Source: a plasmid
NCBI RefSeq assembly: GCF_056712565.1
Contig: NZ_JBWXXM010000004.1
Length of the DNA: 64,000 bases
Strand: one strand, 5' to 3'
Positions 6,160-54,002 of the stretch are shown here, piece after piece (positions within the stretch are counted from its first letter, which is position 1; every line of letters starts with the position of its first letter). The notes beneath the pieces were generated by a model that saw only the letters and a program-made list of their open reading frames with translations, ran no database searches and was not told where the DNA came from. The translations under genes and the position numbers were made by a program.

Positions 6160-6176
6160 ATTGCTCTAATGTATTG
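6160..6176 (+). promoter_or_regulatory. C1 operator-like 17-mer upstream of lpa-position gene
   Basis: attgctctaatgtattg, 13/17 to the P1 C1 operator consensus ATTGCTCTAATAAATTT. Confidence 0.4.
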
Positions 6177-11491: not shown

Positions 11492-12523
11492 ATGTCCAAT
11501 TTACTGACCGTACACCAAAATTTGCCTGCATTACCGGTCGATGCAACGAGTGATGAGGTTCGCAAGAACCTGATGGACATGTTCAGGGATCGCCAGGCGT
11601 TTTCTGAGCATACCTGGAAAATGCTTCTGTCCGTTTGCCGATCGTGGGCGGCATGGTGCAAGTTGAATAACCGGAAATGGTTTCCCGCAGAACCTGAAGA
11701 TGTTCGCGATTATCTTCTATATCTTCAGGCGCGCGGTCTGGCAGTAAAAACTATCCAGCAACATTTGGGCCAGCTAAACATGCTTCATCGTCGGTCCGGG
11801 CTGCCACGACCAAGTGACAGTAATGCTGTTTCACTGGTCATGCGACGGATCCGAAAAGAAAACGTTGATGCCGGTGAACGTGCAAAACAGGCACTGGCGT
11901 TCGAACGCACTGATTTCGACCAGGTTCGTTCACTCATGGAAAATAGCGATCGCTGCCAGGATATACGTAATCTGGCATTTCTGGGGATTGCTTATAACAC
12001 CCTATTACGTATAGCCGAAATTGCCAGGATCAGGGTTAAAGATATCTCACGTACTGACGGTGGGAGAATGTTAATCCATATTGGCAGAACGAAAACGCTG
12101 GTTAGCACCGCAGGTGTAGAGAAGGCACTTAGCCTGGGGGTAACTAAACTGGTCGAGCGATGGATTTCTGTCTCTGGTGTGGCTGATGATCCGAATAACT
12201 ACTTGTTTTGCCGTGTCAGAAAAAATGGTGTTGCCGCGCCATCTGCCACCAGCCAGCTATCAACTCGCGCCCTGGAAGGGATTTTTGAAGCAACTCATCG
12301 ATTGATTTACGGCGCTAAGGATGACTCTGGTCAGAGATACCTGGCCTGGTCTGGACACAGTGCCCGTGTCGGAGCCGCGCGAGATATGGCCCGCGCCGGA
12401 GTTTCAATACCGGAGATCATGCAAGCTGGTGGCTGGACCAACGTAAATATTGTCATGAACTATATCCGTAACCTGGATAGTGAAACGGGGGCAATGGTGC
12501 GCCTGCTGGAAGATGGCGATTAG
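11492..12523 (+). CDS. cre: Cre tyrosine recombinase
   Basis: 343-aa product MSNLLTVHQNLPALPVDATSDEVRKNLMDMFRDRQAFSEHTWKMLLSVCRSWAAWCKL... with catalytic Tyr context NVNIVMNYIR; adjacent loxP. Confidence 0.97.
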   Translation: MSNLLTVHQNLPALPVDATSDEVRKNLMDMFRDRQAFSEHTWKMLLSVCRSWAAWCKLNNRKWFPAEPEDVRDYLLYLQARGLAVKTIQQHLGQLNMLHRRSGLPRPSDSNAVSLVMRRIRKENVDAGERAKQALAFERTDFDQVRSLMENSDRCQDIRNLAFLGIAYNTLLRIAEIARIRVKDISRTDGGRMLIHIGRTKTLVSTAGVEKALSLGVTKLVERWISVSGVADDPNNYLFCRVRKNGVAAPSATSQLSTRALEGIFEATHRLIYGAKDDSGQRYLAWSGHSARVGAARDMARAGVSIPEIMQAGGWTNVNIVMNYIRNLDSETGAMVRLLEDGD

Positions 12524-13132: not shown

Positions 13133-13693
13133 ATGAAAACAATCGAACAAAAACTTGAACAGCGCCGCGAGTGGCAGAAGGCAGCCAGAGAACGAGCGAT
13201 CGCTCGGCAACGGGAAAAGTTGGCTGACCCCGCCTGGCGAGAATCGCAATATCAGAAAATGCGGGATTCTATCGACCGCCGTATCGCTAAACAGAAAGAG
13301 CGCCCACCAGCCAGCAAAACGCGGAAAAGTGCGGTAAAGATAAAATCTCGTGGCTTGAAGGGGCGAACATCGACAGCGGAGGAACGGAGCATCGCCAATG
13401 CTCTTGGCGCTCTCCCCTGCATTGCCTGCTACATGCATGGAGTAATATCTGAAGAGGTATCTCTGCACCATATCTCCGGTCGTACCGCGCCGGGTTGTCA
13501 CAAAAAGCAATTGCCCCTTTGTAGATGGCACCACCAGCATGCAGCACCGGCTGAAGTAAGAGAAAAATACCCCTGGCTGGTCCCTGTTCATGCCGATGGT
13601 GTGGTTGGAGGCAAGAAAGAATTCACCTTGCTGAACAAGTCAGAGATGGAGTTGCTGGCTGACGCCTATGAGATGGCAAACATCATGCACTAA
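13133..13693 (+). CDS. ref: Ref, HNH-family recombination enhancement endonuclease
   Basis: 186-aa product; HNH-like CYMHGVISEEVSLHHISG...CRWHH; P1 position after cre/c8. Confidence 0.85.
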   Translation: MKTIEQKLEQRREWQKAARERAIARQREKLADPAWRESQYQKMRDSIDRRIAKQKERPPASKTRKSAVKIKSRGLKGRTSTAEERSIANALGALPCIACYMHGVISEEVSLHHISGRTAPGCHKKQLPLCRWHHQHAAPAEVREKYPWLVPVHADGVVGGKKEFTLLNKSEMELLADAYEMANIMH

Positions 13694-13735: not shown

Positions 13736-14524
13736 GTGACTTCAGTCAGAATCATCACATGCCCGGTACGGATGGATCCCTTTTCAAATATTCCATGGAC
13801 GGCACAGTCTGAGTACCGGGCGCTACCTTCAGTTGTATTGCTAAGCCGCCGCTGGTGGCTTTTCTTTTTTGTAGGGGGCGCTATGGATAAGAAAATATGC
13901 GTTGTTTCGATGAGCGTCGGCAAACCGGCGTCAATGACTGCTGCATGGATCAACAATGAGCTAATAATGGCTGAGCGGACCAGCTACCCTGAACGCCGCC
14001 GCGATATGGAACTCCAGCTGCTGCGCGAATTGCGAGAAAAAGAGGAAAAGGGTTTTATCGTGCTGGTGGAAGAGGAAAACAGCTTTATTACTGGTCGAGT
14101 TGGCCAGCGTGTAAGGTTGCGCGATCCCTTCATGAACGGCAGGCCGGTACTAATTGAGGCAATGCAGATTTATAAGGAGCTGGAACGCCAGAAAGCAATC
14201 AAGTTACCGCGCAAGGAATCCGGCAAATACATTCTCCACCAAAGCATCTTCGATTCCGAACACGATAAAAAAGGCGATGAGTTTTTCAACATCAACTGGA
14301 GCGAAATAACGACAGAGCATGTTCTGACGTTGTTATGCTGCTTCGCAACAGAATACAACAACGTGGTAAGCGCAGACTACATCAGGGCAATGGCTGGAGA
14401 AGTTGAGGCCCGCCAAGAACCATCGTTACTAAGTCCACTGATTAACATAATTCTGGGCACCCAGATACTGGAACAAAAAAAAGTGCCGAAAGGGGTATTA
14501 ACAGGCAAGCATAATTATTTTTAA
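13736..14524 (+). CDS. hypothetical protein, mat-position (likely true start ATG 13883 behind GGGGG)
   Basis: ORF track; internal Met MDKKICVV preceded by gtagggggcgct. Confidence 0.4.
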   Translation: MTSVRIITCPVRMDPFSNIPWTAQSEYRALPSVVLLSRRWWLFFFVGGAMDKKICVVSMSVGKPASMTAAWINNELIMAERTSYPERRRDMELQLLRELREKEEKGFIVLVEEENSFITGRVGQRVRLRDPFMNGRPVLIEAMQIYKELERQKAIKLPRKESGKYILHQSIFDSEHDKKGDEFFNINWSEITTEHVLTLLCCFATEYNNVVSADYIRAMAGEVEARQEPSLLSPLINIILGTQILEQKKVPKGVLTGKHNYF

Positions 14525-14617
14525 CAATTACATACAGTAATTTTGTGGTTACATTCTCCATTGATTTTCTAACCGCTTTATCATTAGATGTAACAGCATG
14601 TAAATCATTTAAAATGG

Positions 14618-15754
14618 ATGAAAGCAATGGGGAATGAAGTTTATCAAAGTCAAAAATGCAAGTTGAAATATTCAAAATCTCAAATTGATAGGGCTGCTCA
14701 ATTGATAAGGCACGGGTGTAGTGACGAAGAAAGGCAGCAATCTATTGAAATGATACAAAATTTCCGTGAGCTGCATCTTTATCCATTAATGCTCATGAAA
14801 AATCATTTAGCAAGAGCAGCTGCTAAGGTTGACAAGGACAAAAAGATTCTCGTTGCAAGAAGACTTAAGCGACTTTCTACCATAATAGATAAACTAGAGC
14901 GTCCTAGTCTTGATGGAGGCAGAACTAGCAATGCAATTAAATTAACACGGATGCAGGACGTTGGCGGATGTAGGGCCATTGTCAGAAACTTAGACCAGTT
15001 GATACAGCTAAAGGAACGTCTTTTAAAAAGCAAATCTGTTCATAGGATTGTTAAAGAGTATGATTATCTTACTCCCAAAGACAGCGGCTATAGTGGAATC
15101 CACCTTGCATACAGTTGCTTCGATCAGAAAGAGGATCAATATCCGTGGCGAAAAACAAAGATTGAGATACAGTTAAGAACTCAATTGCAGCATGCTTGGG
15201 CTACCAGCCTTGAAATAATTGATACCCTTGAAGGTATCAAGCTGAAAACTTCAAGTGAAGGGCATCCAGAATGGAGACGATTTTTCTATCTAGCCGGATG
15301 TCTTGTAGCGCACGACGAAAAAGCCTGCACTCTTGATGAGCTAGTTGTATCTCAGTATGAAGGCGAGCTTAAAGAGCTGGAACGGACTTTATCTGTACGG
15401 AGGAAACTAAGCACATACACCATCGCCTTAAATTTAACTTCTGACGCGAATTTGATTAAGAAGTTGCCAAAAAATCATAAGGGGCATTACTTAGTAACAA
15501 TGAGAAATGCAGAAAACAAGCCCAATACAAAAAACAAAAAAATGTTCCTAGTGTCTGTTCGCGCATTTAAAACAAAAGAAGCAGATGAAGCCCTTGAGGC
15601 CTTAAATAAAGACGATTCTAATCCTAATGTATTGATATCTGTTCTCGTTGCTACAGATAACATTAAGTCACTAAAAAAAGCCTACCCCAACTATTTTGGC
15701 TCAACAAACCAGTTTACAAAATTCTTAGATAAGCATCTTCGTAACGAAGGATAG
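14618..15754 (+). CDS. RelA/SpoT-domain nucleotidyltransferase (toxSAS-like), candidate fused toxin-antitoxin of the CapRel type
   Basis: 378-aa product with RLKRLSTIIDKLER, DVGGCRAIV (DxxGxR), DYLTPKDSGYSGIH and EIQLRTQLQHAWA (ExQxRT..HxW) motifs; no neighbouring antitoxin ORF; AT-rich flanks; Cys-poor Lys/Asn-rich C-terminal third. Confidence 0.7.
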   Translation: MKAMGNEVYQSQKCKLKYSKSQIDRAAQLIRHGCSDEERQQSIEMIQNFRELHLYPLMLMKNHLARAAAKVDKDKKILVARRLKRLSTIIDKLERPSLDGGRTSNAIKLTRMQDVGGCRAIVRNLDQLIQLKERLLKSKSVHRIVKEYDYLTPKDSGYSGIHLAYSCFDQKEDQYPWRKTKIEIQLRTQLQHAWATSLEIIDTLEGIKLKTSSEGHPEWRRFFYLAGCLVAHDEKACTLDELVVSQYEGELKELERTLSVRRKLSTYTIALNLTSDANLIKKLPKNHKGHYLVTMRNAENKPNTKNKKMFLVSVRAFKTKEADEALEALNKDDSNPNVLISVLVATDNIKSLKKAYPNYFGSTNQFTKFLDKHLRNEG

Positions 15755-15760
15755 TTGCTT

Positions 15761-15790
15761 AATTTTGCCCGGTAATTCCGGGCAAAATTG
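15761..15790. terminator. bidirectional intrinsic terminator between the toxSAS gene and the lxc-position gene
   Basis: aa ttttgcccgg taatt ccgggcaaaa tt (10-bp stem) between convergent stops. Confidence 0.6.
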
Positions 15791-16039
15791 TCAATCTGCA
15801 TTCAGGAGCAATGCGTTATCTATGATGATCTGCTCCCATTCTTCGAATGCCCGATCGCGGACGCCCTGGGGAACACTGTTAGTTTTGAAATCGACCACCG
15901 TCCGCCATTTCCCGTCCGGGCGGTACATGCGCAGAGCTTTACTTCCCCCTTCCCTGCGCACCTCAACGTTATGCTTATCAGCAAACTCTTGTAATGCTCG
16001 TAGCGTCCCATGCTTTACTGTGTAGTATCGCTTTTTCAA
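15791..16039 (-). CDS. small protein (82 aa), lxc-position (modulator of C1 repression in P1)
   Basis: 82-aa ORF immediately downstream of the ulx-position gene and darB on the same strand; identity by synteny only. Confidence 0.4.
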   Translation of the reverse strand: MKKRYYTVKHGTLRALQEFADKHNVEVRREGGSKALRMYRPDGKWRTVVDFKTNSVPQGVRDRAFEEWEQIIIDNALLLNAD

Positions 16040-16476
16040 GTTTTCTCTCCAGCCTGTGCCAAGGCTTCAACTTCCAAATCGTAAGACTCAAACTCATAGT
16101 CCTGGTCGTCAACTTCTTCAGGCACTGGCAGTAAATGCCAGGCTGAGTATATCTGACCATTATCAAAACGCTCCTGGCTGTAGAGCGTCGCGGCTATGAG
16201 TGTTAGCGCCGGGCGGTCATAACGGTAAATTTTGCGAACGTCACGGTCAACGAGACGACCGAAATTACCATAACCGCGCTCCAGTAATAATTTTTTAATT
16301 TCCGGCCAGTATGGACCATAGCTGCGGTACAGGCGGGGATTTTTCAGTAATCGCCCGCGTAGCCCTGACAGGAAGAAATCAACGTATTCGTCTTCTGTCT
16401 TTCCTAACAACGCTGTACGGAGTACCGCCTCAAGATATGTTTTATTCGGTTTTATTGTATCAGATAGTGTGGCCAT
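16036..16476 (-). CDS. hypothetical protein (146 aa), ulx-position
   Basis: ORF track; overlaps the next gene start by 4 nt (coupled). Confidence 0.4.
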   Translation of the reverse strand: MATLSDTIKPNKTYLEAVLRTALLGKTEDEYVDFFLSGLRGRLLKNPRLYRSYGPYWPEIKKLLLERGYGNFGRLVDRDVRKIYRYDRPALTLIAATLYSQERFDNGQIYSAWHLLPVPEEVDDQDYEFESYDLEVEALAQAGEKT

Positions 16477-16509: not shown

Positions 16510-19500
16510 TTATGCGTATTGTTGGATGACGGCCAGAACGTCCGCCACGTTGTGTTTTGTCTCGATAATCCACCAGTTACCCGGGAAATCGCTGTTCTTC
16601 GCCTTCGCTGGCAGCCAGCGAGCGCCGAATTTCGCCTTGATTGCGTCTTTCGCACGGAAAAGAACGCCTTTCATGCCTGAGGCTTCCTGAAGCCCAAATA
16701 CCTCGCCAGCGGCGAATTTTGGTGCGTACATCATCTTCAGGTCGGCGGTGGATACGCGATAATTCAGACCAAGAGACTGAGCTATGCTGGTGGCATCACC
16801 CTGTGTTGATGATAACTCTTCTTGTTTCTCGTTTCTGGCGGCAATCTCTTCCTCCGTGATGTTGCCAAGGGCTAGGTTTATCCGATCAGCGTCGGCCTGT
16901 TTCTCTTCATCGGTGCGCCCGGCAAGAACCGTGTTAATTCTCTGCAATATCTCCACATGATTCTTGCGCATGCTGAGCAATTCCGGCGTAACCTCGTTAA
17001 GATCCACCAGCCCAAGGATGGCAAGGTCGGAAAACATTGATACCAGGTTGTAGGTCATGCGATAGCTGAGTTGACCATAGGCTGATGGCAACTTCACAGC
17101 ATCCATTTGATAGGCATCCATAAATTTAGAGCCGTCGTTTACGACATCCGCTATTGCAGGTGTGATTTTCCCTGTGGTGGCGGCCTCCCTGATTGCTGTT
17201 ACCCACGATTGAGTCAGCGCGGCGACTGCATGATTCAGATTGGCTTCCCGTTCTGCTACGATGCGCGCGCTTGCTGCGTCCATTGCCTGCTTGATCTCGG
17301 CTTTATTGCTGTAAATGCCAATGGTGCCAAACTGTGCTGTGGTGATCTCATAATCTGACCCCCGGAACTCATTGGTACCGAAAATGGCATTGGTGACTTC
17401 AAGTTCAGAATCCCCGTTACGAGTAGCCCCCTGGCTTGTTTTTTCCGGCATTCTGGCGATCGCATCCGCTATTTTCTCCTGAATTGCTTCAGGGGATAGC
17501 GTATCTCCGTATGACGCGATTACATCGCCATAATTGGAGCCAAACAATTCAACCAGGAATGTTTCTGCCGAACGGATCTGGCGGTTATTCCCTTCCGACA
17601 TCATACCAAGCACCCATTTTGCAATTGACGACTTCAGCGCGTCGTCACGGCGATCCGGGTAAACCGCATGCTTCAGTGGGTCCGTATAGGTACCAACAAA
17701 ATCAATGCTATAGCCTGACTCTGTAGTCTGAACGCCGTACGAGTCAGTTATTTTGATCATGCCGCGCTGCTGGAAACGGTAGAAATCGTCACAGGAAATG
17801 ATGTCGTTAATCCCGGCGATGGAGACGCCACCACTGATTTTCTGCATAACAGCATCTTCATCGGGAGTTACATCCACCTGTTTATCCAGCGTCTTCACAT
17901 CCCAGTTACCCGATTTGGTGCCTTTGAAGGTAAAGATGATCTCCACGTCTGCGCGCTGGCTGTCGAAGTCCAGCGACTTAATGCGAACGATATCACCGGC
18001 ACAATCGTAGTATTGGCCTACACGCCATGAGCGATCGCCGATAACAAGGAACTCACTCGCATGGTTAACCAGGTCAGGATCAACATCCAGAATGCCTTTA
18101 TTTATTGCATCCTCCACCAGCGGGCGCAGGCGTTTGATATCCGTCGCGGCCTTCTGAGTACGGTTCAATAATTTCTCATAGCGGGAGATGGCTTGAGAGA
18201 TATTAGCCTTGCGCTGAATGGCGTTTTTCAACGACGCGCGATACTGTGCTAACAACATACGGTCTGTGTGATGGACGCTCCCCCAGCGGGCCTTCCAGTC
18301 TGCGTTATCAGCTGCTTTGGCCATTACCGCCTGTTTGAATTTGGCGACGTCGGCGGTGGTCTTTTCAAGTTCCGCTTTGCTTCGCTCTAATTCAGCGGTA
18401 AGTACCTCCACATCCTCGCCAGCTGCGTGCTGCGCCTTGATGTAGTTCTGAAGGTCGATAGTAGCCTGTTCTTTCTGGCGAGCGCGTTGCGCGGCTTTCG
18501 CCTTATCCATTTGAACCTGCATCATTGCCAGACGTTCGCCATCATCCTTAGCGGTATACATCTGCATTTCGATCATATCGTTGGCGTCGGCGTTCTCCAT
18601 TTCTGACTTATCTGAACGGAGGATATCGGAGATCCAGCCTGCTTTACGCTTCAGCGTCTTCAGTCGGTATTCATCGAAAGAACCCTTGCCGCAGTAGTAG
18701 TGAACGCGAACGCTTGCACGGTTGGAGCCAACTCGGGCACCGCGACCGTTACGCTGTGCGATACTGGCTGGTGTCCATGGCAACGTCAGATGATGGATGT
18801 CAGTCGTTCCTCGATGCAGGTTGATACCCACCTCTGCCTTTTTGTTGCAGATGATGATCGGAGTCCGGCCCTCCTGGAAGTCGGCAGCAATCTTTTCCAG
18901 CCCACCCAGCGACATTTCATTTTGCTGCGCGATATAGGCGTCATACAGAGCCATTTGCTCGTTGTATTTCGCTATCTGTGCATCTGTTGGTTCATCCGGT
19001 AGCTCTTTCGGCGGTTTAACCGCTTTCAGTTTCTTACCGGTTTTACCTGCCTCGGCAACCGTCTGAGCATTCAGGATCCCCACCTTTGAAGGTTCAAGGT
19101 TAAGAGCATTGCAGATAATGCGCTTGAGCTTCTGGTGTTGCGTTTTTTCATCGGTGAAGATGATTTGCTTACCTTCCGGGAAAAACTCCTTCAGCGTGGC
19201 AATCAGCTTCGCGTATTTGGGCGTAACGGGGTGAGTTACGGTCTGTTCGTCAATGCCAAACTTGGCCAGGCGCTTATTCACTTCCTGCTCGAACGCTTCC
19301 GGAACCTGCAACTGAATAAACTCGCCCTTATCTATCAGGGAGTATTGCGATTGCTGCGTGATTGAATCATCACTGTCGTCGTCTTCGCTGGTGGCTTGTT
19401 TAGGCAAACTGTCCGCCAGCTGCTGCACCGCATCGGCGTACTCCGGCAGGAAACGATAGGTGATCCGGCGATAGTACAGGTCCATGTCAGTACATACGCG

Positions 19501-22500
19501 GTCCATATCCCTGATTATTGAGAAGATCGGACGGGCTTTCTCGTGCTCAATCACGCCGTCTTCATTGACCGAGGTCGTTACGCCATTGTTGGCTTTGGCC
19601 GCCGCTTCCGCCTGCTGACGCAATTCTTCATACGCCGCCAGTTGTTCTTCAGTAAGTGGTGCATCCTGCTGGTGTTCGTCCAGCTCCGGGATCTCCACGG
19701 TATCCTTAACGTCTTCCGCCGTTTTAAGCGTTACCCAGCGATGGAATATACCGCGCAGCGCATCAAGGTTTTCAAAGCCCACCAGCGCCATTTTTTCTTC
19801 AACTTCACCGCTAATTTTCTGTACCGTTTCCAGCCTGGTCTTGCCGAAGAATTTAACGAAGTCATCAGGACCGTAGATCCCCATGTTCTGCCAGTATTCC
19901 TTCGGCAGAACATGAGAAAGCATGTTGTATGCATCGATCGGGGTGTTAACGACTGGCGTTGCAGTCAGGAGAACCGGCCCGCGCCCGCCATTCTTTTTCA
20001 TCAGGTACGCGTTTTTAATTGCCATATCTCGCGCCGATTGCGCCACCGCGCTGGTGGGCAGATAGGCCAGTTGTGACGCTTCGCGACCATTTTTATAGCT
20101 ATTGCGGTAGTTGTGACCTTCGTCGGCGATCACACTATCGAAGCCCATATCCTCAAAGTACGGATACTTCTCTGCTTTTTCGGTGCCGGTATCTGAATAC
20201 TCCGACAATACCCGGCGACGCGCGGCCTCTTTGCGGTGGGAGTCGGAGTCCATTGCGCTGGCTACGCGCCCGGCTGCAACGAAGTCATAAAGCATATCCT
20301 GTGCATGCTCATCTACGGTGTCATCACGTAGCGGAATGCGGGCGTATTGTTCTTTGGTAAACACGACTGCACGGTAATTTGAGTGCGGGATCGCGTTCAT
20401 CCGCGCCGTGATAGTGGCTTCATCTGCCAGTTTTAGGGCATCGCGCATAACTGGAGTGCCATCAGTACCAAGAACAGGTTTACCGTTCTCATCGAGCACC
20501 GGCACCTGGCGAATCTGATCGCCATCCATCAGCACATCAAGACCGACGAACAGGTAGTTACTGAATGCCTCTTCACTCAGGAATTCTTTTGCTTCGTAAT
20601 ACCAGTTTTCCAGCACTGATTTAGGCACTACATACGCAGTACGGGTGGAGCGACCGTTCTCATAGTTGAACGCCTCAAGCGCCAGCGCGGTCGTAGTTTT
20701 ACCCAGCCCGGTGCCGAAGCCCAGGATGCCGCGCCCATCTTCGGACAGTCGGCGCACTTCGCTATTCTGGTAATCAAATGGCTGGCGCTTACCGCTTAAT
20801 CCCTTCAACCCAAGCGGATCGCCAGAGTGTTCATACGGGATATTGCTATTGAACACATCGTTGTATTTGGCAACCAGTTCATCGTAGCGATCGTGCGTCT
20901 TGATCCACTTATTGAACTGGTCCTCAAGCAGTGCCATCTGCTCGCGGTAGCCGTTCGCCGTCGCGCTATCTTTGCCACCGATACGCGCACCATTGAGATA
21001 CTTTTCCAGCTGTGCCGGGAACCCGGTCGCGTTTTCACCTGATTTACGGTCCCACTCGTAGCGGATCTCGCCTGTTTCTTTATCCTTGCGCTGGACGACA
21101 CCGTATCGGTGCCCGACGAACAGACCATCACCACCGTGATAGGTGTCAGAAACCATTTCGTCGCCTTCCAGCTGCACTGACTGCACATAGCGAAGATCCG
21201 GATAGCCGTTTTCCTGCAAAAATTCCAGAATGACGGAACGGTCGAACCAACGGCTATTGAGCTTAAAGCGGATATTCTCTGCTGGCGTCTTGATGCGCTT
21301 CTCTTCGATCGCTGCCAGCTGATTAAGGACGTTGTTCTTTACTGGACCGTCGGGGAGTGTGGCAAGGAATTCCTGTTTTGGTGCCACTATCTCGTTAATG
21401 TCGCCGCTGGTGGCGCGGGCGAACGGAACAATCCCGCCATACGGTGAAACCGCAATGCCAGGGGTGCTGGCCAATAAATTAAGCAACTCGTCATCACTGG
21501 CTGGCAGTTCGCCGGTAAACGCAAGGCGGAAATCATCGAGCTGGATTGGATCGCGAGTGAGATCACTGTAGAGATAACGCAGGGTGTCCTGATAGCTGGT
21601 GGAGTCATAACTGGCGCTGGAATCATGCGTAACCAGTTTTCCTGTCAGCTCGTCAGAAATAGTGCCATCCAGCTTAATTGCACCACGGAAAGCAAACCAG
21701 GCGCGCGCACCGCTCCCCGATAATTTCGCTATCGGACCGCGACCGGGGTTACCAAAACGGTCAATCTCTGCCTGCAAACGGGATACCAGAGAAAGGCGCT
21801 GCTGTTCGATTTGTTCAGCACTATGCCCGGCGGCCTTCATGTCCTGATATTCAATTAACATCCGGCCAATCATCGCCCCGCGATACAAGCGTTCACGGTA
21901 TTTTTCAGGCTGGCTGTTAATCCAGTCCACCAGCTGCACCATATCGTCGCTGATTGATGTGGTGTACTTATCGCGGACATTTGCCATCTGGGTAAATGTC
22001 ATGCCGAGACGGCCTTCTGTTGTAGTCAGGTTACGCTGAAGAGCCTCCCAGCTATCCGCGCCATAACTGGCAGCATCGATCTTAAGTTCCTTCCCTGCAT
22101 CAGCTTCAATCCAGCGACCACCAGCATATTTTTGCCATACGCCATTAATCAGGCGCATTTCCCCTTCACCAACAACGTCTGCGGTCGGTGACGGTTCAGC
22201 CATATCGAGCAAAGACCAGTCGATACGGCTTTCGAAACGATGAATCAGCTTCGCTTTAAGAGCCTGGTTATCAATCTGACCGTCGGCACGAACCTCAATA
22301 CGCCCCTGGAAGCCCTTTTCCTGGGTGCCATGAACAAACCGGCGGCCATCCTTTTCAAACCACTTGCCAGAAATAAACGTTGACCAAAGCACATTTGCCG
22401 ATTCGAGAGTGCTTTCATCCACCAGGGGGATTTTCTCAGCCATCTCTGCCGGATGTTTGCGCATCAGCACCACATCTACGACCGTACTGGTCCCGTTAGC

Positions 22501-23277
22501 GTCAAAAGTACCGGTAGGCAAGCGGTGAGCGCCAAGAAATTCAGCTTTACGGGATAGGCGCAGGCGTAACCGCTTCATGTTTGAACCTGAAACAATGGAC
22601 GGCGGCACAATCACGCACATGAATCCGCCTGGCTTTATCTTGTCCAGCATGCGGAGCATGAAGTAAGAACCCATGTCCGTTTCTTCTGCGTAAGGCTTAT
22701 CGATGTTGCGTGTGTTATCACGACCACCGAACGGAACGTTACCCACAACATGGTCGAATGAATCGTTAGGCGTGCTTACAGCCAGCTGTTCGAACGGGGA
22801 AATCTGTACGCTGTCTTCCGGGTGTAACAGCTGGTTTATACGACCGGAAACACTGCTGATCTCAGTCGCAGTCATCACCGTACCAACCGGTTTTGTCTCA
22901 TTAAAAACGCCGGTGCCCGCCGATGGTTCCAGAGTGTTACCTACGTCCGCGCCGTAGAGCTTCATGATCTCCCAGACACCTTCAGCGATCGGCTTTGGTG
23001 TGTAATATTCGGAGACGGACCCGCCAATGCCGCCTTCACCGGTGTACCCAGCCAGGATCTGGCGCTGTTCATCTGTCAGTGTCGCGCCGTCCACCAGCGA
23101 ATTAAGCAAATCTATCGCCTTCTGATTCGCCTCCCGGCGCAGTCGGTCATAGCTTTTGCCTTCCACCTTTTCCACGCCGTATTTAATCGGCGCTCGGTGA
23201 GATGTTATTGCCCTAATGTATTTCAATATTTCGCTGACACTTGAACAGCGAAACACCCCCATAGATAGCTTGTTCAT
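16510..23277 (-). CDS. darB: DarB, antirestriction protein packaged in virions (N6-adenine methyltransferase plus DExH helicase domains)
   Basis: 2255-aa product (length of P1 DarB); MTase motif-IV-like HVVGNVPFGG; Walker A GFGTGLGKTTTALA; DExH VIADEGHNYRN. Confidence 0.9.
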   Translation of the reverse strand: MNKLSMGVFRCSSVSEILKYIRAITSHRAPIKYGVEKVEGKSYDRLRREANQKAIDLLNSLVDGATLTDEQRQILAGYTGEGGIGGSVSEYYTPKPIAEGVWEIMKLYGADVGNTLEPSAGTGVFNETKPVGTVMTATEISSVSGRINQLLHPEDSVQISPFEQLAVSTPNDSFDHVVGNVPFGGRDNTRNIDKPYAEETDMGSYFMLRMLDKIKPGGFMCVIVPPSIVSGSNMKRLRLRLSRKAEFLGAHRLPTGTFDANGTSTVVDVVLMRKHPAEMAEKIPLVDESTLESANVLWSTFISGKWFEKDGRRFVHGTQEKGFQGRIEVRADGQIDNQALKAKLIHRFESRIDWSLLDMAEPSPTADVVGEGEMRLINGVWQKYAGGRWIEADAGKELKIDAASYGADSWEALQRNLTTTEGRLGMTFTQMANVRDKYTTSISDDMVQLVDWINSQPEKYRERLYRGAMIGRMLIEYQDMKAAGHSAEQIEQQRLSLVSRLQAEIDRFGNPGRGPIAKLSGSGARAWFAFRGAIKLDGTISDELTGKLVTHDSSASYDSTSYQDTLRYLYSDLTRDPIQLDDFRLAFTGELPASDDELLNLLASTPGIAVSPYGGIVPFARATSGDINEIVAPKQEFLATLPDGPVKNNVLNQLAAIEEKRIKTPAENIRFKLNSRWFDRSVILEFLQENGYPDLRYVQSVQLEGDEMVSDTYHGGDGLFVGHRYGVVQRKDKETGEIRYEWDRKSGENATGFPAQLEKYLNGARIGGKDSATANGYREQMALLEDQFNKWIKTHDRYDELVAKYNDVFNSNIPYEHSGDPLGLKGLSGKRQPFDYQNSEVRRLSEDGRGILGFGTGLGKTTTALALEAFNYENGRSTRTAYVVPKSVLENWYYEAKEFLSEEAFSNYLFVGLDVLMDGDQIRQVPVLDENGKPVLGTDGTPVMRDALKLADEATITARMNAIPHSNYRAVVFTKEQYARIPLRDDTVDEHAQDMLYDFVAAGRVASAMDSDSHRKEAARRRVLSEYSDTGTEKAEKYPYFEDMGFDSVIADEGHNYRNSYKNGREASQLAYLPTSAVAQSARDMAIKNAYLMKKNGGRGPVLLTATPVVNTPIDAYNMLSHVLPKEYWQNMGIYGPDDFVKFFGKTRLETVQKISGEVEEKMALVGFENLDALRGIFHRWVTLKTAEDVKDTVEIPELDEHQQDAPLTEEQLAAYEELRQQAEAAAKANNGVTTSVNEDGVIEHEKARPIFSIIRDMDRVCTDMDLYYRRITYRFLPEYADAVQQLADSLPKQATSEDDDSDDSITQQSQYSLIDKGEFIQLQVPEAFEQEVNKRLAKFGIDEQTVTHPVTPKYAKLIATLKEFFPEGKQIIFTDEKTQHQKLKRIICNALNLEPSKVGILNAQTVAEAGKTGKKLKAVKPPKELPDEPTDAQIAKYNEQMALYDAYIAQQNEMSLGGLEKIAADFQEGRTPIIICNKKAEVGINLHRGTTDIHHLTLPWTPASIAQRNGRGARVGSNRASVRVHYYCGKGSFDEYRLKTLKRKAGWISDILRSDKSEMENADANDMIEMQMYTAKDDGERLAMMQVQMDKAKAAQRARQKEQATIDLQNYIKAQHAAGEDVEVLTAELERSKAELEKTTADVAKFKQAVMAKAADNADWKARWGSVHHTDRMLLAQYRASLKNAIQRKANISQAISRYEKLLNRTQKAATDIKRLRPLVEDAINKGILDVDPDLVNHASEFLVIGDRSWRVGQYYDCAGDIVRIKSLDFDSQRADVEIIFTFKGTKSGNWDVKTLDKQVDVTPDEDAVMQKISGGVSIAGINDIISCDDFYRFQQRGMIKITDSYGVQTTESGYSIDFVGTYTDPLKHAVYPDRRDDALKSSIAKWVLGMMSEGNNRQIRSAETFLVELFGSNYGDVIASYGDTLSPEAIQEKIADAIARMPEKTSQGATRNGDSELEVTNAIFGTNEFRGSDYEITTAQFGTIGIYSNKAEIKQAMDAASARIVAEREANLNHAVAALTQSWVTAIREAATTGKITPAIADVVNDGSKFMDAYQMDAVKLPSAYGQLSYRMTYNLVSMFSDLAILGLVDLNEVTPELLSMRKNHVEILQRINTVLAGRTDEEKQADADRINLALGNITEEEIAARNEKQEELSSTQGDATSIAQSLGLNYRVSTADLKMMYAPKFAAGEVFGLQEASGMKGVLFRAKDAIKAKFGARWLPAKAKNSDFPGNWWIIETKHNVADVLAVIQQYA

Positions 23278-51914: not shown

Positions 51915-52043
51915 TTACCCGATTCTACGAGTTGTCATTTGTTACCGGTCAGTCTACACATTTCAGATGCTGCGTTAAAAAACCCAAGTACTTCAAGTAG
52001 CACATCGTCATCAACACCCAGCCCCAAGATACGGTGATAAAAT

Positions 52044-53078
52044 TCAAGCCTTAAGAGGCTTTGTGTATGTTCGTGTAATCCATCCAGTAATAAACTCGTC
52101 CCCTGATTTAACCTGCACGAAAAGCCATTGGCGATCTTTTTTATCTAAAACAGCCACTATAGTATTTTTGCCAATGCATTCAATCACCTCACTATTTATA
52201 GAAGGACTGACGTGTAATCTTACGTTCTCACCAGTTATAAAACGAAAACCATTGAGATCTTCCCAACTAATTTCTTTGTTTTCTTTAATTAATTGTTGTT
52301 TTGATATTGGTTTATCCTCAAACAGAGATATAAAATATGATTCTGCCTTGTGTATTCCCAGCAAGGTTTTCTCTTTTCCGTAATCAATAAAAGCACCAAA
52401 CACAACTTGAGAAAATATAACCATTAGTAACCATTGCAGTGGATAAGGAAGCTCTTTAAATGAATCAACAAACTTTGAGCTAGGTTTATTTAATCCTTTA
52501 TTTTGAACATTACTTTTGGTGTGTGATGTTTCAGTAGCACCTTCAGCATAAGCCTGCGCAATAGATGAAATCCCCTGCTCTATTATTTGATGTAATGAAG
52601 CATTTCTTGTTCTAGCATAGTGATCTAGTACTTTCTTTATGTCTTGGCTTACATCTATTTTATAACTTGCACTTTGTTGTAATTCTTTAAGTATCGCTTG
52701 CATGTTATTTAAACCAGCTTGCTTATTAAGCACCTCAAGCTGTTTTCGTAATGGCATAGCTATTTCGGCCTGTTTCCTTAGCATTTGAATATATCTATTT
52801 GCATCATGAGGGAAAAGAGCCTGAGTCTGTTTCTGTAAAATCGCGATATGTTCACGATACTTGCTGCCTATTCCAGCCAAGTTCGGTATACTAGCCAATT
52901 GTTTTCGAAGAGAGTTACTAATTACAGCTTGTCTATTCAATCTTGGCATATTTTGAAAAGAATGTTTTTCTATTCCTAATTGTTTTTGCAAGATCGCTAC
53001 GTGATCTTTGTATGATGGAATGAGCACTGACTGTTTATACAGCAACTTCAACTCATTAGAATTAGTAATTTTTGTCAT
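52044..53078 (-). CDS. membrane-anchored protein with N-terminal ILQKQ-type repeats and C-terminal SH3-like domain (sim-position cluster)
   Basis: 344-aa; repeats HVAILQKQ / HIAILQKQ / LRKQ; TM segment LPYPLQWLLMVIFSQVVFGAFIDYG; C-terminal GENVRLHVSPSINSEVIECIGKNTIVAVLDKKDRQWLFVQVKSGDEFITGWITRTY; AT-rich codon usage. Confidence 0.5.
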   Translation of the reverse strand: MTKITNSNELKLLYKQSVLIPSYKDHVAILQKQLGIEKHSFQNMPRLNRQAVISNSLRKQLASIPNLAGIGSKYREHIAILQKQTQALFPHDANRYIQMLRKQAEIAMPLRKQLEVLNKQAGLNNMQAILKELQQSASYKIDVSQDIKKVLDHYARTRNASLHQIIEQGISSIAQAYAEGATETSHTKSNVQNKGLNKPSSKFVDSFKELPYPLQWLLMVIFSQVVFGAFIDYGKEKTLLGIHKAESYFISLFEDKPISKQQLIKENKEISWEDLNGFRFITGENVRLHVSPSINSEVIECIGKNTIVAVLDKKDRQWLFVQVKSGDEFITGWITRTYTKPLKA

Positions 53079-53152
53079 ATTATTCCATTTCTATAATAGA
53101 ATATTACGCAACCAATGTTTTATTGATTGCGTTAATCTTTAACACAGAAAGA

Positions 53153-53629
53153 TCATTTGCCTCGTTTAATACATCCATCCATTTTGGCTTGTTGATACAA
53201 CTTACTTAGCCCAGAAAGAGGGAATGTAGCAATTTTTTCATTATCAACATAAGCATCAATCATATTAGCATTTGAATCTGCTGCATCTTGCCAAAAGGCA
53301 TACCACCAAGAATCTCCAACCATTGATCCAAGATTGCTAAAAGGATATTGATCACCATCTATAGTTAATACTATTTTATTCTTGTCAGCATTATACTCTT
53401 TTTTATTATTCGACGAACTTAGCAACAAGCCTAAACTACCTGCACTATCTGGTGAACCATACATGAATCCCATATCACATAAAAAACTTATCTTATCACC
53501 ATTATGATTATGGATTGTATATTCTCTCCCCCCTCTCTCTTCAATTACATTCCATTGTAGAGGATCAATTTTTGCAAATGTTCCTGCTGAAACTAACGAT
53601 ACAAATAATAAAAACCATCTCATATTCAT
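53153..53629 (-). CDS. secreted/periplasmic protein with signal peptide (sim-position cluster)
   Basis: N-terminus MNMRWFLLFVSLVSAGTFAKIDP (n-h-c signal peptide with AxA-like cleavage context). Confidence 0.5.
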   Translation of the reverse strand: MNMRWFLLFVSLVSAGTFAKIDPLQWNVIEERGGREYTIHNHNGDKISFLCDMGFMYGSPDSAGSLGLLLSSSNNKKEYNADKNKIVLTIDGDQYPFSNLGSMVGDSWWYAFWQDAADSNANMIDAYVDNEKIATFPLSGLSKLYQQAKMDGCIKRGK

Positions 53630-53651
53630 TCTTTTCGCTTCTTATCTGTAA

Positions 53652-54002
53652 TTATTCTGCAATATCATTTGCCCATTGCACGGCAGCAAAATGAGTACCC
53701 AAACCACTCAGGAAAGCAATTACCCCCAAAACAATACTTGCTGCTGTTGATTCAAACAAAGTACCAATACTATAGCCAATAGCTCCCCATACTAAGCTAA
53801 ATACAATCATCAATGGTATTGCTAGAAATTTTATTCTTAAACTAAAAATCAGTCCAAGAAAAGAACCGCCAAAGGCCCACCATGATTTAGACATTAAACC
53901 TATCAGTATTGACAGAATTCCTATTTCAATAAAGAGAATATTAGATTGCTCTTCATTGAATTTCGCATTTGTTACACCTTTACGAACATGTTCAGATGAC
54001 AT
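53652..54002 (-). CDS. small polytopic membrane protein (sim-position cluster)
   Basis: 116-aa, three hydrophobic helices (ILFIEIGILSILIGLM, FLGLIFSLRIKFLAIPLMIVFSLVWGAIGY, AASIVLGVIAFLSGLG). Confidence 0.45.
   Translation of the reverse strand: MSSEHVRKGVTNAKFNEEQSNILFIEIGILSILIGLMSKSWWAFGGSFLGLIFSLRIKFLAIPLMIVFSLVWGAIGYSIGTLFESTAASIVLGVIAFLSGLGTHFAAVQWANDIAE

Follow-up and report, generated by a model that had tools for sequence, protein, structure and literature searches.

The 64,000-nucleotide stretch of plasmid DNA analyzed here (the window; NCBI RefSeq assembly GCF_056712565.1, contig NZ_JBWXXM010000004.1) carries a single gene between the mat and lxc genes of a P1-like E. coli phage-plasmid, and sequence comparisons identify it as an intact CapRel-family fused toxin-antitoxin. 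We consider it very probable that its product is a phage-protein-triggered tRNA pyrophosphokinase, carried as defense cargo of the phage-plasmid and causing abortive infection. The main point of comparison is the founding member of the family, CapRel-SJ46, encoded by J46_0058 of Salmonella phage SJ46 (PDB 7ZTB, 9ERV; Zhang et al. Nature 2022 and 2024), which likewise is a single open reading frame (ORF) of near-equal length (373 amino acids [aa], versus 375 aa in the window) with the same predicted fold and a homologous leader, and which lies on the same strand in the mat-lxc slot of a P1-like phage. A first-pass annotation, made from the sequence alone, had proposed a fused toxic small alarmone synthetase (toxSAS) of the CapRel type, and this proposal is borne out by the RelA_SpoT domain, the full-length match to 7ZTB and 9ERV, the single ORF, a predicted Cys-free pseudo-zinc-finger domain (pseudo-ZFD), and the SJ46-like slot.

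The assignment to the family draws on several collections of sequences and structures. Pfam RelA_SpoT (PF04607) matches residues 82-196 (378-aa numbering, counted from an upstream ATG discussed below) with an expectation value (E) of 7e-12, as had been foreseen, and a PDB sequence search matches 7ZTB_A and 9ERV_A end to end (E about 1e-185). Aligned pairwise, the window protein and the SJ46 protein (a translation from KU760857) likewise correspond over the full length, at 73.7% identity. Among other collections, the PADLOC candidate family PDC-S33 is matched over its full length (E 7e-86) and PHROGs returns phrog_4773 (E 9e-148). With an AlphaFold 2 (AF2) model as the query, the top Foldseek matches are 9ERV_A and 7ZTB (E 2e-41, template modeling [TM] score 0.70-0.76, ∼361 aligned columns), labeled 'CapRel bound to Bas11 Gp54' and 'Salmonella tRNA pyrophosphokinase CapRel', respectively.

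The RelA_SpoT nucleotidyltransferase core is also common to the housekeeping small alarmone synthetases (SAS) RelQ, RelP and YjbM, and the protein could accordingly be an enzyme of that kind, or a (pp)pApp-making toxSAS such as FaRel, that alters nucleotide pools and not tRNA; weak matches to YjbM (NCBIfam YjbM/RelQ equivalog NF053588, E 8e-9) and to RelP and RelQ structures speak for this. We regard it as very unlikely. The equivalog is matched by residues 78-196 alone and with 35.5 bits, versus a curated cut-off of 320 that a housekeeping enzyme exceeds over the whole protein, and the Foldseek matches to SAS structures are restricted to a catalytic core of 120-200 residues at E ∼1e-7, with FaRel2/ATfaRel2 (8PU3) at 7.6e-4, compared with 2e-41 for CapRel. 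RelQ, RelP and YjbM share only ∼20% identity with the window protein, in the core only, are without a pseudo-ZFD, and use GDP/GTP rather than tRNA as substrate, whereas the toxin domain of the window protein is 79% identical to an enzyme demonstrated to pyrophosphorylate tRNA (PMC9712102).

The 378-aa ORF that the first-pass annotation had located alone in the slot (14618-15754, plus strand) is found in the ORF listing exactly there. Translation probably starts at the ATG at 14627 (M4 of this ORF), giving 375 aa, rather than at the upstream ATG at 14618, because a GGA lies ∼8 nt upstream of the former, the representative of the sequence cluster has 375 aa, and both the SJ46 protein and the 7ZTB chain begin at the equivalent Met; the 375-aa numbering is used below unless stated otherwise. 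There is no room between the stop codons of mat (14524) and lxc (15791-15793) for a second ORF that might encode a separate antitoxin, the only others being short out-of-frame ORFs within the gene, and the earlier statement that an adjacent antitoxin ORF is absent is thus correct. The arrangement differs from that of the bicistronic toxSAS of the FaRel/PhRel type, which have an adjacent antitoxin gene, and is that of CapRel, in which toxin and antitoxin form one ORF: the single 375-aa ORF fills the slot. The compositional features noted at the outset are also found, in that the cargo (14525-15790) is AT-rich, with a GC content of 0.381 versus 0.482 in the left flank and 0.519 in the right flank, and the final 130 residues include 18 Lys, 14 Asn and no Cys.

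Two damaged copies of this cargo were encountered elsewhere. The copy in phage vB_EcoM-673R5 (ON470615.2, 6001-7264 of the compared locus) is otherwise 99.8% identical but lacks a single A in each of two homopolymer runs (window-equivalent positions 15128 and 15673), the gene being annotated there as two coding sequences (CDSs); the deletions are either sequencing errors or a recent inactivation. On the chromosome of E. coli AHM9C61I (NZ_CP125883.1, 3480475-3480924) the match is confined to the 3'-terminal 450 nt of the cargo (817-1266), at 99.3%, within what is annotated as a hypothetical protein, and this fragment has the appearance of a truncated leftover, possibly from a P1-like element that integrated or was rearranged. 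Such copies might lead one to view the window gene, too, as a decaying or inactive remnant, an idea we find scarcely credible: the window copy is intact, it is 100% identical at the DNA level in at least 24 of the E. coli plasmids listed, all of its catalytic and regulatory residues are kept, and the homopolymer changes in 673R5 may be sequencing errors.

The functional dissection of CapRel-SJ46 provides a residue-level standard against which the window protein can be compared. In SJ46, R79 and R116 coordinate ATP, Y155 is the G-loop tyrosine whose replacement in Y155A abolishes defense, mutation of Y352 or Y355 of the YXXY motif or of the interface residues A77, V338, L339, A341 and A351 leads to constitutive toxicity, and L280 and L307 are required to sense the capsid protein (PMC9712102). 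All 12 of these residues are kept in the window protein, where the numbering shifts by +1 relative to SJ46 after position 298 (giving L308, V339, L340, A342, A352, Y353 and Y356). Across 69 aligned homologues the 12 are invariant or nearly so; the catalytic R79, R116 and Y155 do not vary, nor do A352, Y353, P354 and N355, and Y356 and the interface residues A77, V339 and L340 are at least 90% conserved. Also invariant are D111, G114, C115, R116, E180, Q182 and R184, which include the residues whose non-conservation the first-pass annotation had said would speak against its proposal; of the motif positions it listed in the 378-aa numbering, D114, Y148 and E183 are right, and the RLKRL motif begins at R82 and not at R81.

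The AF2 model (mean predicted local distance difference test score [pLDDT] 83, predicted TM score 0.80) contains three strands (286-294, 307-315 and 335-343), the second and third of which are separated by a helix (316-330), and the C-terminal structure prediction that had been proposed as a check thus yields a pseudo-ZFD fold. The predicted beta-beta-alpha-beta topology is the published topology of the pseudo-ZFD, in a Cys-free form. Further helices are modeled at 238-255, 257-270 and 274-279 in the region of the linker and anchor-1. The global root-mean-square deviation between the model and the open crystal forms is ∼10 Å despite an alignment over the full length, which hints that the relative orientation of the domains in the model differs from that in the open forms; the same difference has been described between the AlphaFold closed state and the open crystal form (Zhang et al.).

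By homology to CapRel-SJ46, for which an N-terminal fragment is toxic and a C-terminal fragment neutralizes it in trans (PMC9712102), we infer autoinhibition, tRNA pyrophosphorylation and abortive infection for the window allele, the modification of tRNA 3' ends being suggested because the toxin domain is so similar to that of the SJ46 enzyme. In an uninfected lysogen the protein would be made from its own promoter and would inhibit itself, with the C-terminal pseudo-ZFD folding back on the N-terminal RelA/SpoT-type pyrophosphokinase domain and the YXXY motif (Y353/Y356) inserting between R79 and R116 to block the ATP site. [quoted passage not shown]

Several observations weigh against this interpretation of the gene as a phage-triggered defense system. 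A consensus sigma-70 promoter scan called no site in the leader, and for this reason the promoter is inferred solely from homology to the SJ46 leader, of which the equivalent ∼110 bp served as the 'native promoter' in the pBR322-capRel-SJ46 construct TZ-1 (Zhang et al. 2022 supplement). The AF2 model is weakest, with low pLDDT, at anchor-1 (270-274) and in the beta6-beta7 loop (298-303). The sensor is just 57% identical to that of SJ46 and has a unique beta6-beta7 loop, and CapRel-Ebc and CapRel-SJ46, with 70% identity overall, sense unrelated proteins (PMC13423816); since such similarly diverged homologues respond to unrelated proteins, no trigger can be assigned to the window allele.

Divergence from SJ46 is unevenly distributed along the protein, with 79% identity over aa 1-240 (the toxin domain), 64% over aa 241-373, and 57% in the pseudo-ZFD. 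Nonsynonymous differences follow the same pattern: the toxin domain has a proportion of such differences (pN) of 0.14 and a corresponding substitution rate (dN) of 0.156, compared with 0.26 and 0.313 for the pseudo-ZFD, so that the sensor has twice the dN of the toxin. The proportion of synonymous differences (pS) is saturated at 0.81-1.0, and no ratio of nonsynonymous to synonymous rates (dN/dS) could be computed for either domain. As judged from these comparisons, the values indicate purifying selection across the gene, with the sensor domain evolving faster than the toxin domain. Within the sensor region, helix alpha9 of anchor-1 is 80% identical to that of SJ46, retaining L270, D273, N275, L276 and K278 and differing by K277I and S279K, whereas the beta6-beta7 loop is only 33% identical and one residue longer in the window protein.

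CapRel alleles subjected to experiment number four in the openly accessible literature (SJ46, Ebc, Kp and EcHT), subscription-only papers lying outside this count. From its sequence the window allele is distinct from all of them, at 74% identity to SJ46, ∼70% to EcHT, less to Ebc, and distant from Kp; the question raised by the first-pass annotation, whether this is a known CapRel allele or a variant, is resolved at the sequence level in favor of a distinct allele. In the openly accessible literature we found no experiments on this allele and no work on the mat-lxc locus as a hotspot, only a survey of CapRel prevalence and a general paper on a hotspot tool.

Identity with CapRel-EcHT (E. coli HT2012018; Zhang et al. 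2022, Extended Data Fig. 6h) was considered and rejected. We recovered its sequence from the synthetic constructs TZ-92 and TZ-93 (2022 supplement) and matched it to database clusters, where it corresponds to cluster P0012 (99% identity over the sensor region), whose protein is the one ∼70% identical to that of the window. The toxin domains of EcHT and the window allele are 75% identical and their sensors share the segments 'LIKKLPKN' and 'KEADEALEAL', with identities of 59% in the pseudo-ZFD and 25% in the beta6-beta7 loop, and the genomic context of EcHT differs, the DNA upstream of it having no relationship to the P1 leader. EcHT defends against Bas8 via the capsid protein (Zhang et al. 2022).

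CapRel-Ebc of Enterobacter chengduensis was likewise rejected as an identity for the window allele. Its sequence was taken from TZ-2 and TZ-3 in the 2022 supplement, a machine-read text with frameshifts in which just the C-terminal frame is usable, and in this reading the pseudo-ZFD is ∼52%, anchor-1 40% and the beta6-beta7 loop 8% identical to the window, within the same fused domain plan and with a nearly identical beta6 ('PKNHKGHYLVTM'). Ebc senses T7 Gp0.4 together with FtsZ (PMC13423816), a wholly different class of trigger, and this demonstrates that membership in the family does not predict specificity. Taken by segment, the sensor of the window protein is a mosaic, with an SJ46-like alpha9, an Ebc-like beta6 and an EcHT-like alpha10, and its beta6-beta7 loop (aa 295-306) reaches at most 33% identity with any of the 19 relatives in the comparison, SJ46, EcHT and Ebc among them.

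These comparisons bear on what the window protein senses. It may be functionally equivalent to CapRel-SJ46, with the same triggers, namely the major capsid protein of the SECPhi27/Bas5/Bas8 type, Gp54 of Bas11, or both, a possibility that we regard as real, although doubtful, and under which the system would in effect already have been characterized under another name. L280 and L307 (here L308), needed for capsid sensing, are kept, alpha9, residues of which contact Gp54-Bas11 in SJ46 (PMC11578894), is largely preserved, and EcHT, about equally diverged from SJ46, still answers the Bas8 capsid protein. The beta6-beta7 loop, which in SJ46 touches the A-domain of the capsid protein (PMC9712102), has nonetheless diverged together with the rest of the pseudo-ZFD, S279 is Lys in the window allele and S279P lowered Gp54 sensing in SJ46, and single substitutions in trigger or sensor abolish recognition by SJ46, quite apart from the different specificities of Ebc and SJ46. 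We tentatively suggest, at somewhat less than even chances, that the window allele has a trigger different from all those characterized (SECPhi27-type capsid protein, Gp54-Bas11, and T7 Gp0.4 with FtsZ), read through its unique Lys/Asn-rich beta6-beta7 loop, and that it and the SJ46 allele make up a natural sensor pair, traded in cassette form at a single locus of phage-plasmids. Because anchor-1 and L280/L308 are SJ46-like, a Gp54-Bas11-like protein and a SECPhi27-type capsid protein would be the first candidates to consider as its trigger.

The first 25 kb of the window are 97-99% identical to E. coli plasmids of ∼93-100 kb with phage genes, and the window therefore derives from a P1-like phage-plasmid; mat (a 262-aa ORF ending at 14524) and lxc (an 82-aa ORF), between which the gene at 14627 lies, were named by comparison with annotated P1-like phages. 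In P1 the corresponding slot contains res and mod (the latter locus IS5-interrupted) between mat and lxc, on the opposite strand, and P7 has the same layout with res and mod of its own, in agreement with the earlier suggestion that the gene occupies the res-mod position of P1. SJ46 has its 373-aa 'RelA/SpoT family protein' there, and in RCS47 the slot is empty, with just 39 nt between mat and lxc. JL22 carries a 316-aa gene matching PADLOC PDC-S34, and Ro157c2YLVW an EAL-like gene together with an AraC/YdeO-like gene. The mat-lxc junction (window 14465-15790) is thus a hotspot of cargo swapping, at which at least six states occur among P1-like phages: type III restriction-modification (R-M), empty, two CapRel alleles, the PDC-S34-like gene, and the EAL-like plus AraC/YdeO-like pair. 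We note that MH445380 has an unannotated 346-aa ORF in this slot (1512-2552 of the compared locus, minus strand), and that in SJ46 (KU760857.1, 1723-5067 and 7948-13154 of the compared locus) Tn1721 (tnpR, tnpA) is the immediate upstream neighbor of mat, and the annotation of darB consists of two CDSs.

The type III systems EcoP1I and EcoP7 (res and mod of P1 and P7) share with the window gene the slot and a presumed role in protecting the lysogen, and differ in having unrelated proteins and an unrelated mechanism, two genes on the opposite strand, and a length of ∼6 kb versus 1.27 kb for the cargo here. The company that the gene keeps in this slot also bears on whether it serves mainly as a plasmid-addiction module, stabilizing the phage-plasmid by post-segregational killing rather than defending against phages. 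As a toxin-antitoxin on a low-copy plasmid prophage, with a high prevalence on P1-like plasmids, it would suit such a function, but we think this highly improbable: toxin and antitoxin are one polypeptide, which makes the required differential decay unavailable, the slot elsewhere holds defense cargo (type III R-M and the PDC-S34-like gene), the sensor evolves faster than the toxin domain as expected of a pathogen-facing surface, and RCS47-type plasmids manage with no cargo in the slot.

The multiple alignment places the right junction of the cargo exactly at the lxc stop codon, where homology to all P1-like phages resumes, and the left junction within the last ∼60 nt of mat (Table 1). Because synonymous sites are saturated within the gene while the flanks are 94-100% identical between the window and SJ46, we conclude from the sequences that the two alleles did not diverge in place, and that the backbone stayed conserved while entire cassettes, leader included, were swapped. 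The leader is homologous solely to that of SJ46 and not to those of P1, P7 or RCS47, and the promoter hexamers TTGATT-N17-TTAGAT within it are plausible ones. A search with the P1 C1-operator consensus ATTGCTCTAATAAATTT, allowing up to 3 mismatches, identified 10 sites between window positions 6160 and 55849 where 0.2 are expected by chance, among them sites before ref (13017) and after cre (12541). At the same threshold none lies between 13034 and 23206, and the CapRel cassette, lxc, ulx and most of darB are without one; the absence of a C1-operator-like site near the leader is consistent with expression in the lysogen.

The CapRel gene and lxc are convergent, and the 36 nt that separate their stop codons are taken up by a perfect inverted repeat. 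The first-pass annotation described it as a bidirectional terminator with a 10-bp stem, correctly as regards the hairpin, which is significantly stable, although the stem has 12 bp and the element is not a canonical terminator. Its arms, AATTTTGCCCGG (15761-15772) and CCGGGCAAAATT (15778-15789), flank a TAATT loop, and it folds at -24 kcal/mol on the plus strand and -21 kcal/mol on the minus strand (z-scores -3.5 and -4.8). On both strands a T-run lies 5' of the stem and an A-run 3' of it, so that neither transcript has a U-tail and the hairpin fails the definition of an intrinsic terminator; a consensus terminator scan did not call the hairpin at 15761-15789. Each cargo state has its own GC-rich hairpin abutting the lxc stop (AATTTTGCCCGG/CCGGGCAAAATT in the window, GCCTGGCT/AGCCAGGC in SJ46, GCCCGG/CCGGGC in RCS47), and all three are without a 3' U-tract. 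The hairpin at the end of the cargo could provide RNA 3'-end stability for the convergent transcripts, or could be a scar of recombination.

Table 1. Features of the cargo locus and its flanks in the window, with DNA identity to phage SJ46 where compared.
Feature	Positions	Strand	DNA identity to SJ46	Remarks
cre	11492..12523			upstream of mat
ref	13133..13693			upstream of mat
mat body			94%	
Left cassette edge, last 60 nt of mat	14465..14524	+	77%	identity drops; 70% to RCS47, 67% to P1
Leader with presumed native promoter and ribosome-binding site	14525..14626	+	67%	candidate -35 TTGATT, N17, TTAGAT; GGA ∼8 nt before ATG 14627
CapRel-family fused toxin-antitoxin gene	14627..15754	+	69% (CDS)	375 aa plus stop; alternative ATG 14618 gives 378 aa
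toxSYNTH toxin domain, RelA/SpoT-type pyrophosphokinase	14627..15346	+		aa 1-240; PF04607; R79, R116 (ATP coordination), G-loop Y155
Linker and anchor-1 helices alpha8-alpha9	15347..15481	+		aa 241-285; alpha9 = LTSDANLIKK, aa 270-279; includes L280
Pseudo-zinc-finger sensor/antitoxin domain	15482..15655	+		aa 286-343; beta6 286-294, beta7 307-315, alpha10 316-330, beta8 335-343
Allele-specific beta6-beta7 loop	15509..15544	+		aa 295-306; Lys/Asn-rich, RNAENKPNTKNK within RNAENKPNTKNKKMF
C-terminal anchor helices with YXXY autoinhibition motif	15656..15751	+		Y353-P-N-Y356 encoded by 15683-15694
3' spacer			49%	
Perfect 12-bp inverted repeat	15761..15789	.		fills 36-nt gap between convergent CapRel-gene and lxc stops
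lxc, right backbone flank	15791..16039	-	97%	82-aa ORF; 97% to RCS47 lxc, 96% to P1
ulx	16036..16476		100%	downstream of lxc
darB	16510..23277			downstream of lxc; one intact 2255-aa ORF

A second AT-rich island is present at window positions 52000-54000, with a GC content of 0.34-0.35 and three ORFs on the minus strand (52044-53078, 53153-53629 and 53652-54002) beside a PmgC-like gene. These ORFs match PHROGs of unknown function (7086, 3429 and 15014), and a PADLOC search of them returned no match.

The presence of CapRel in E. coli P1-like phage-plasmids is common according to a surveillance preprint (bioRxiv 10.1101/2025.09.12.675607). At a DNA identity of at least 99%, a set of 5,426 complete E. 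coli genomes yields 83 records with the window allele, nearly all of them plasmids, compared with 15 for the SJ46 type, and the window allele is thus about five times commoner; it is also found in 52 PLSDB plasmids at the same threshold. Clustering at 90% assigns 313 members to the window type versus 122 to the SJ46 type.

Conceptually nothing in this locus is new, in that the architecture, the mechanism and the logic of the hotspot are already established, and the CapRel family, its mode of action and its occurrence in E. coli P1-like phage-plasmids have been published (PMC9712102; PMC11578894; bioRxiv 10.1101/2025.09.12.675607). CapRel is the textbook example of direct sensing of a structural phage protein by an immune protein of bacteria, and the four alleles tested have already revealed three unrelated classes of trigger. 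The toxin domain, anchor-1 and the slot are common to the window and SJ46 alleles but the sensor is different, and the window allele therefore constitutes a ready-made natural chimera for mapping the determinants of specificity; if its trigger specificity is indeed new, it would offer a direct handle on the natural diversification of CapRel specificity. Among the CapRel alleles on E. coli P1-like phage-plasmids this is the most frequent, and it is present in ∼1.5% of complete E. coli genomes, clinical isolates included, and the range of phages against which it acts therefore matters both for phage therapy and for the effects of phage-plasmids on the susceptibility of their hosts.

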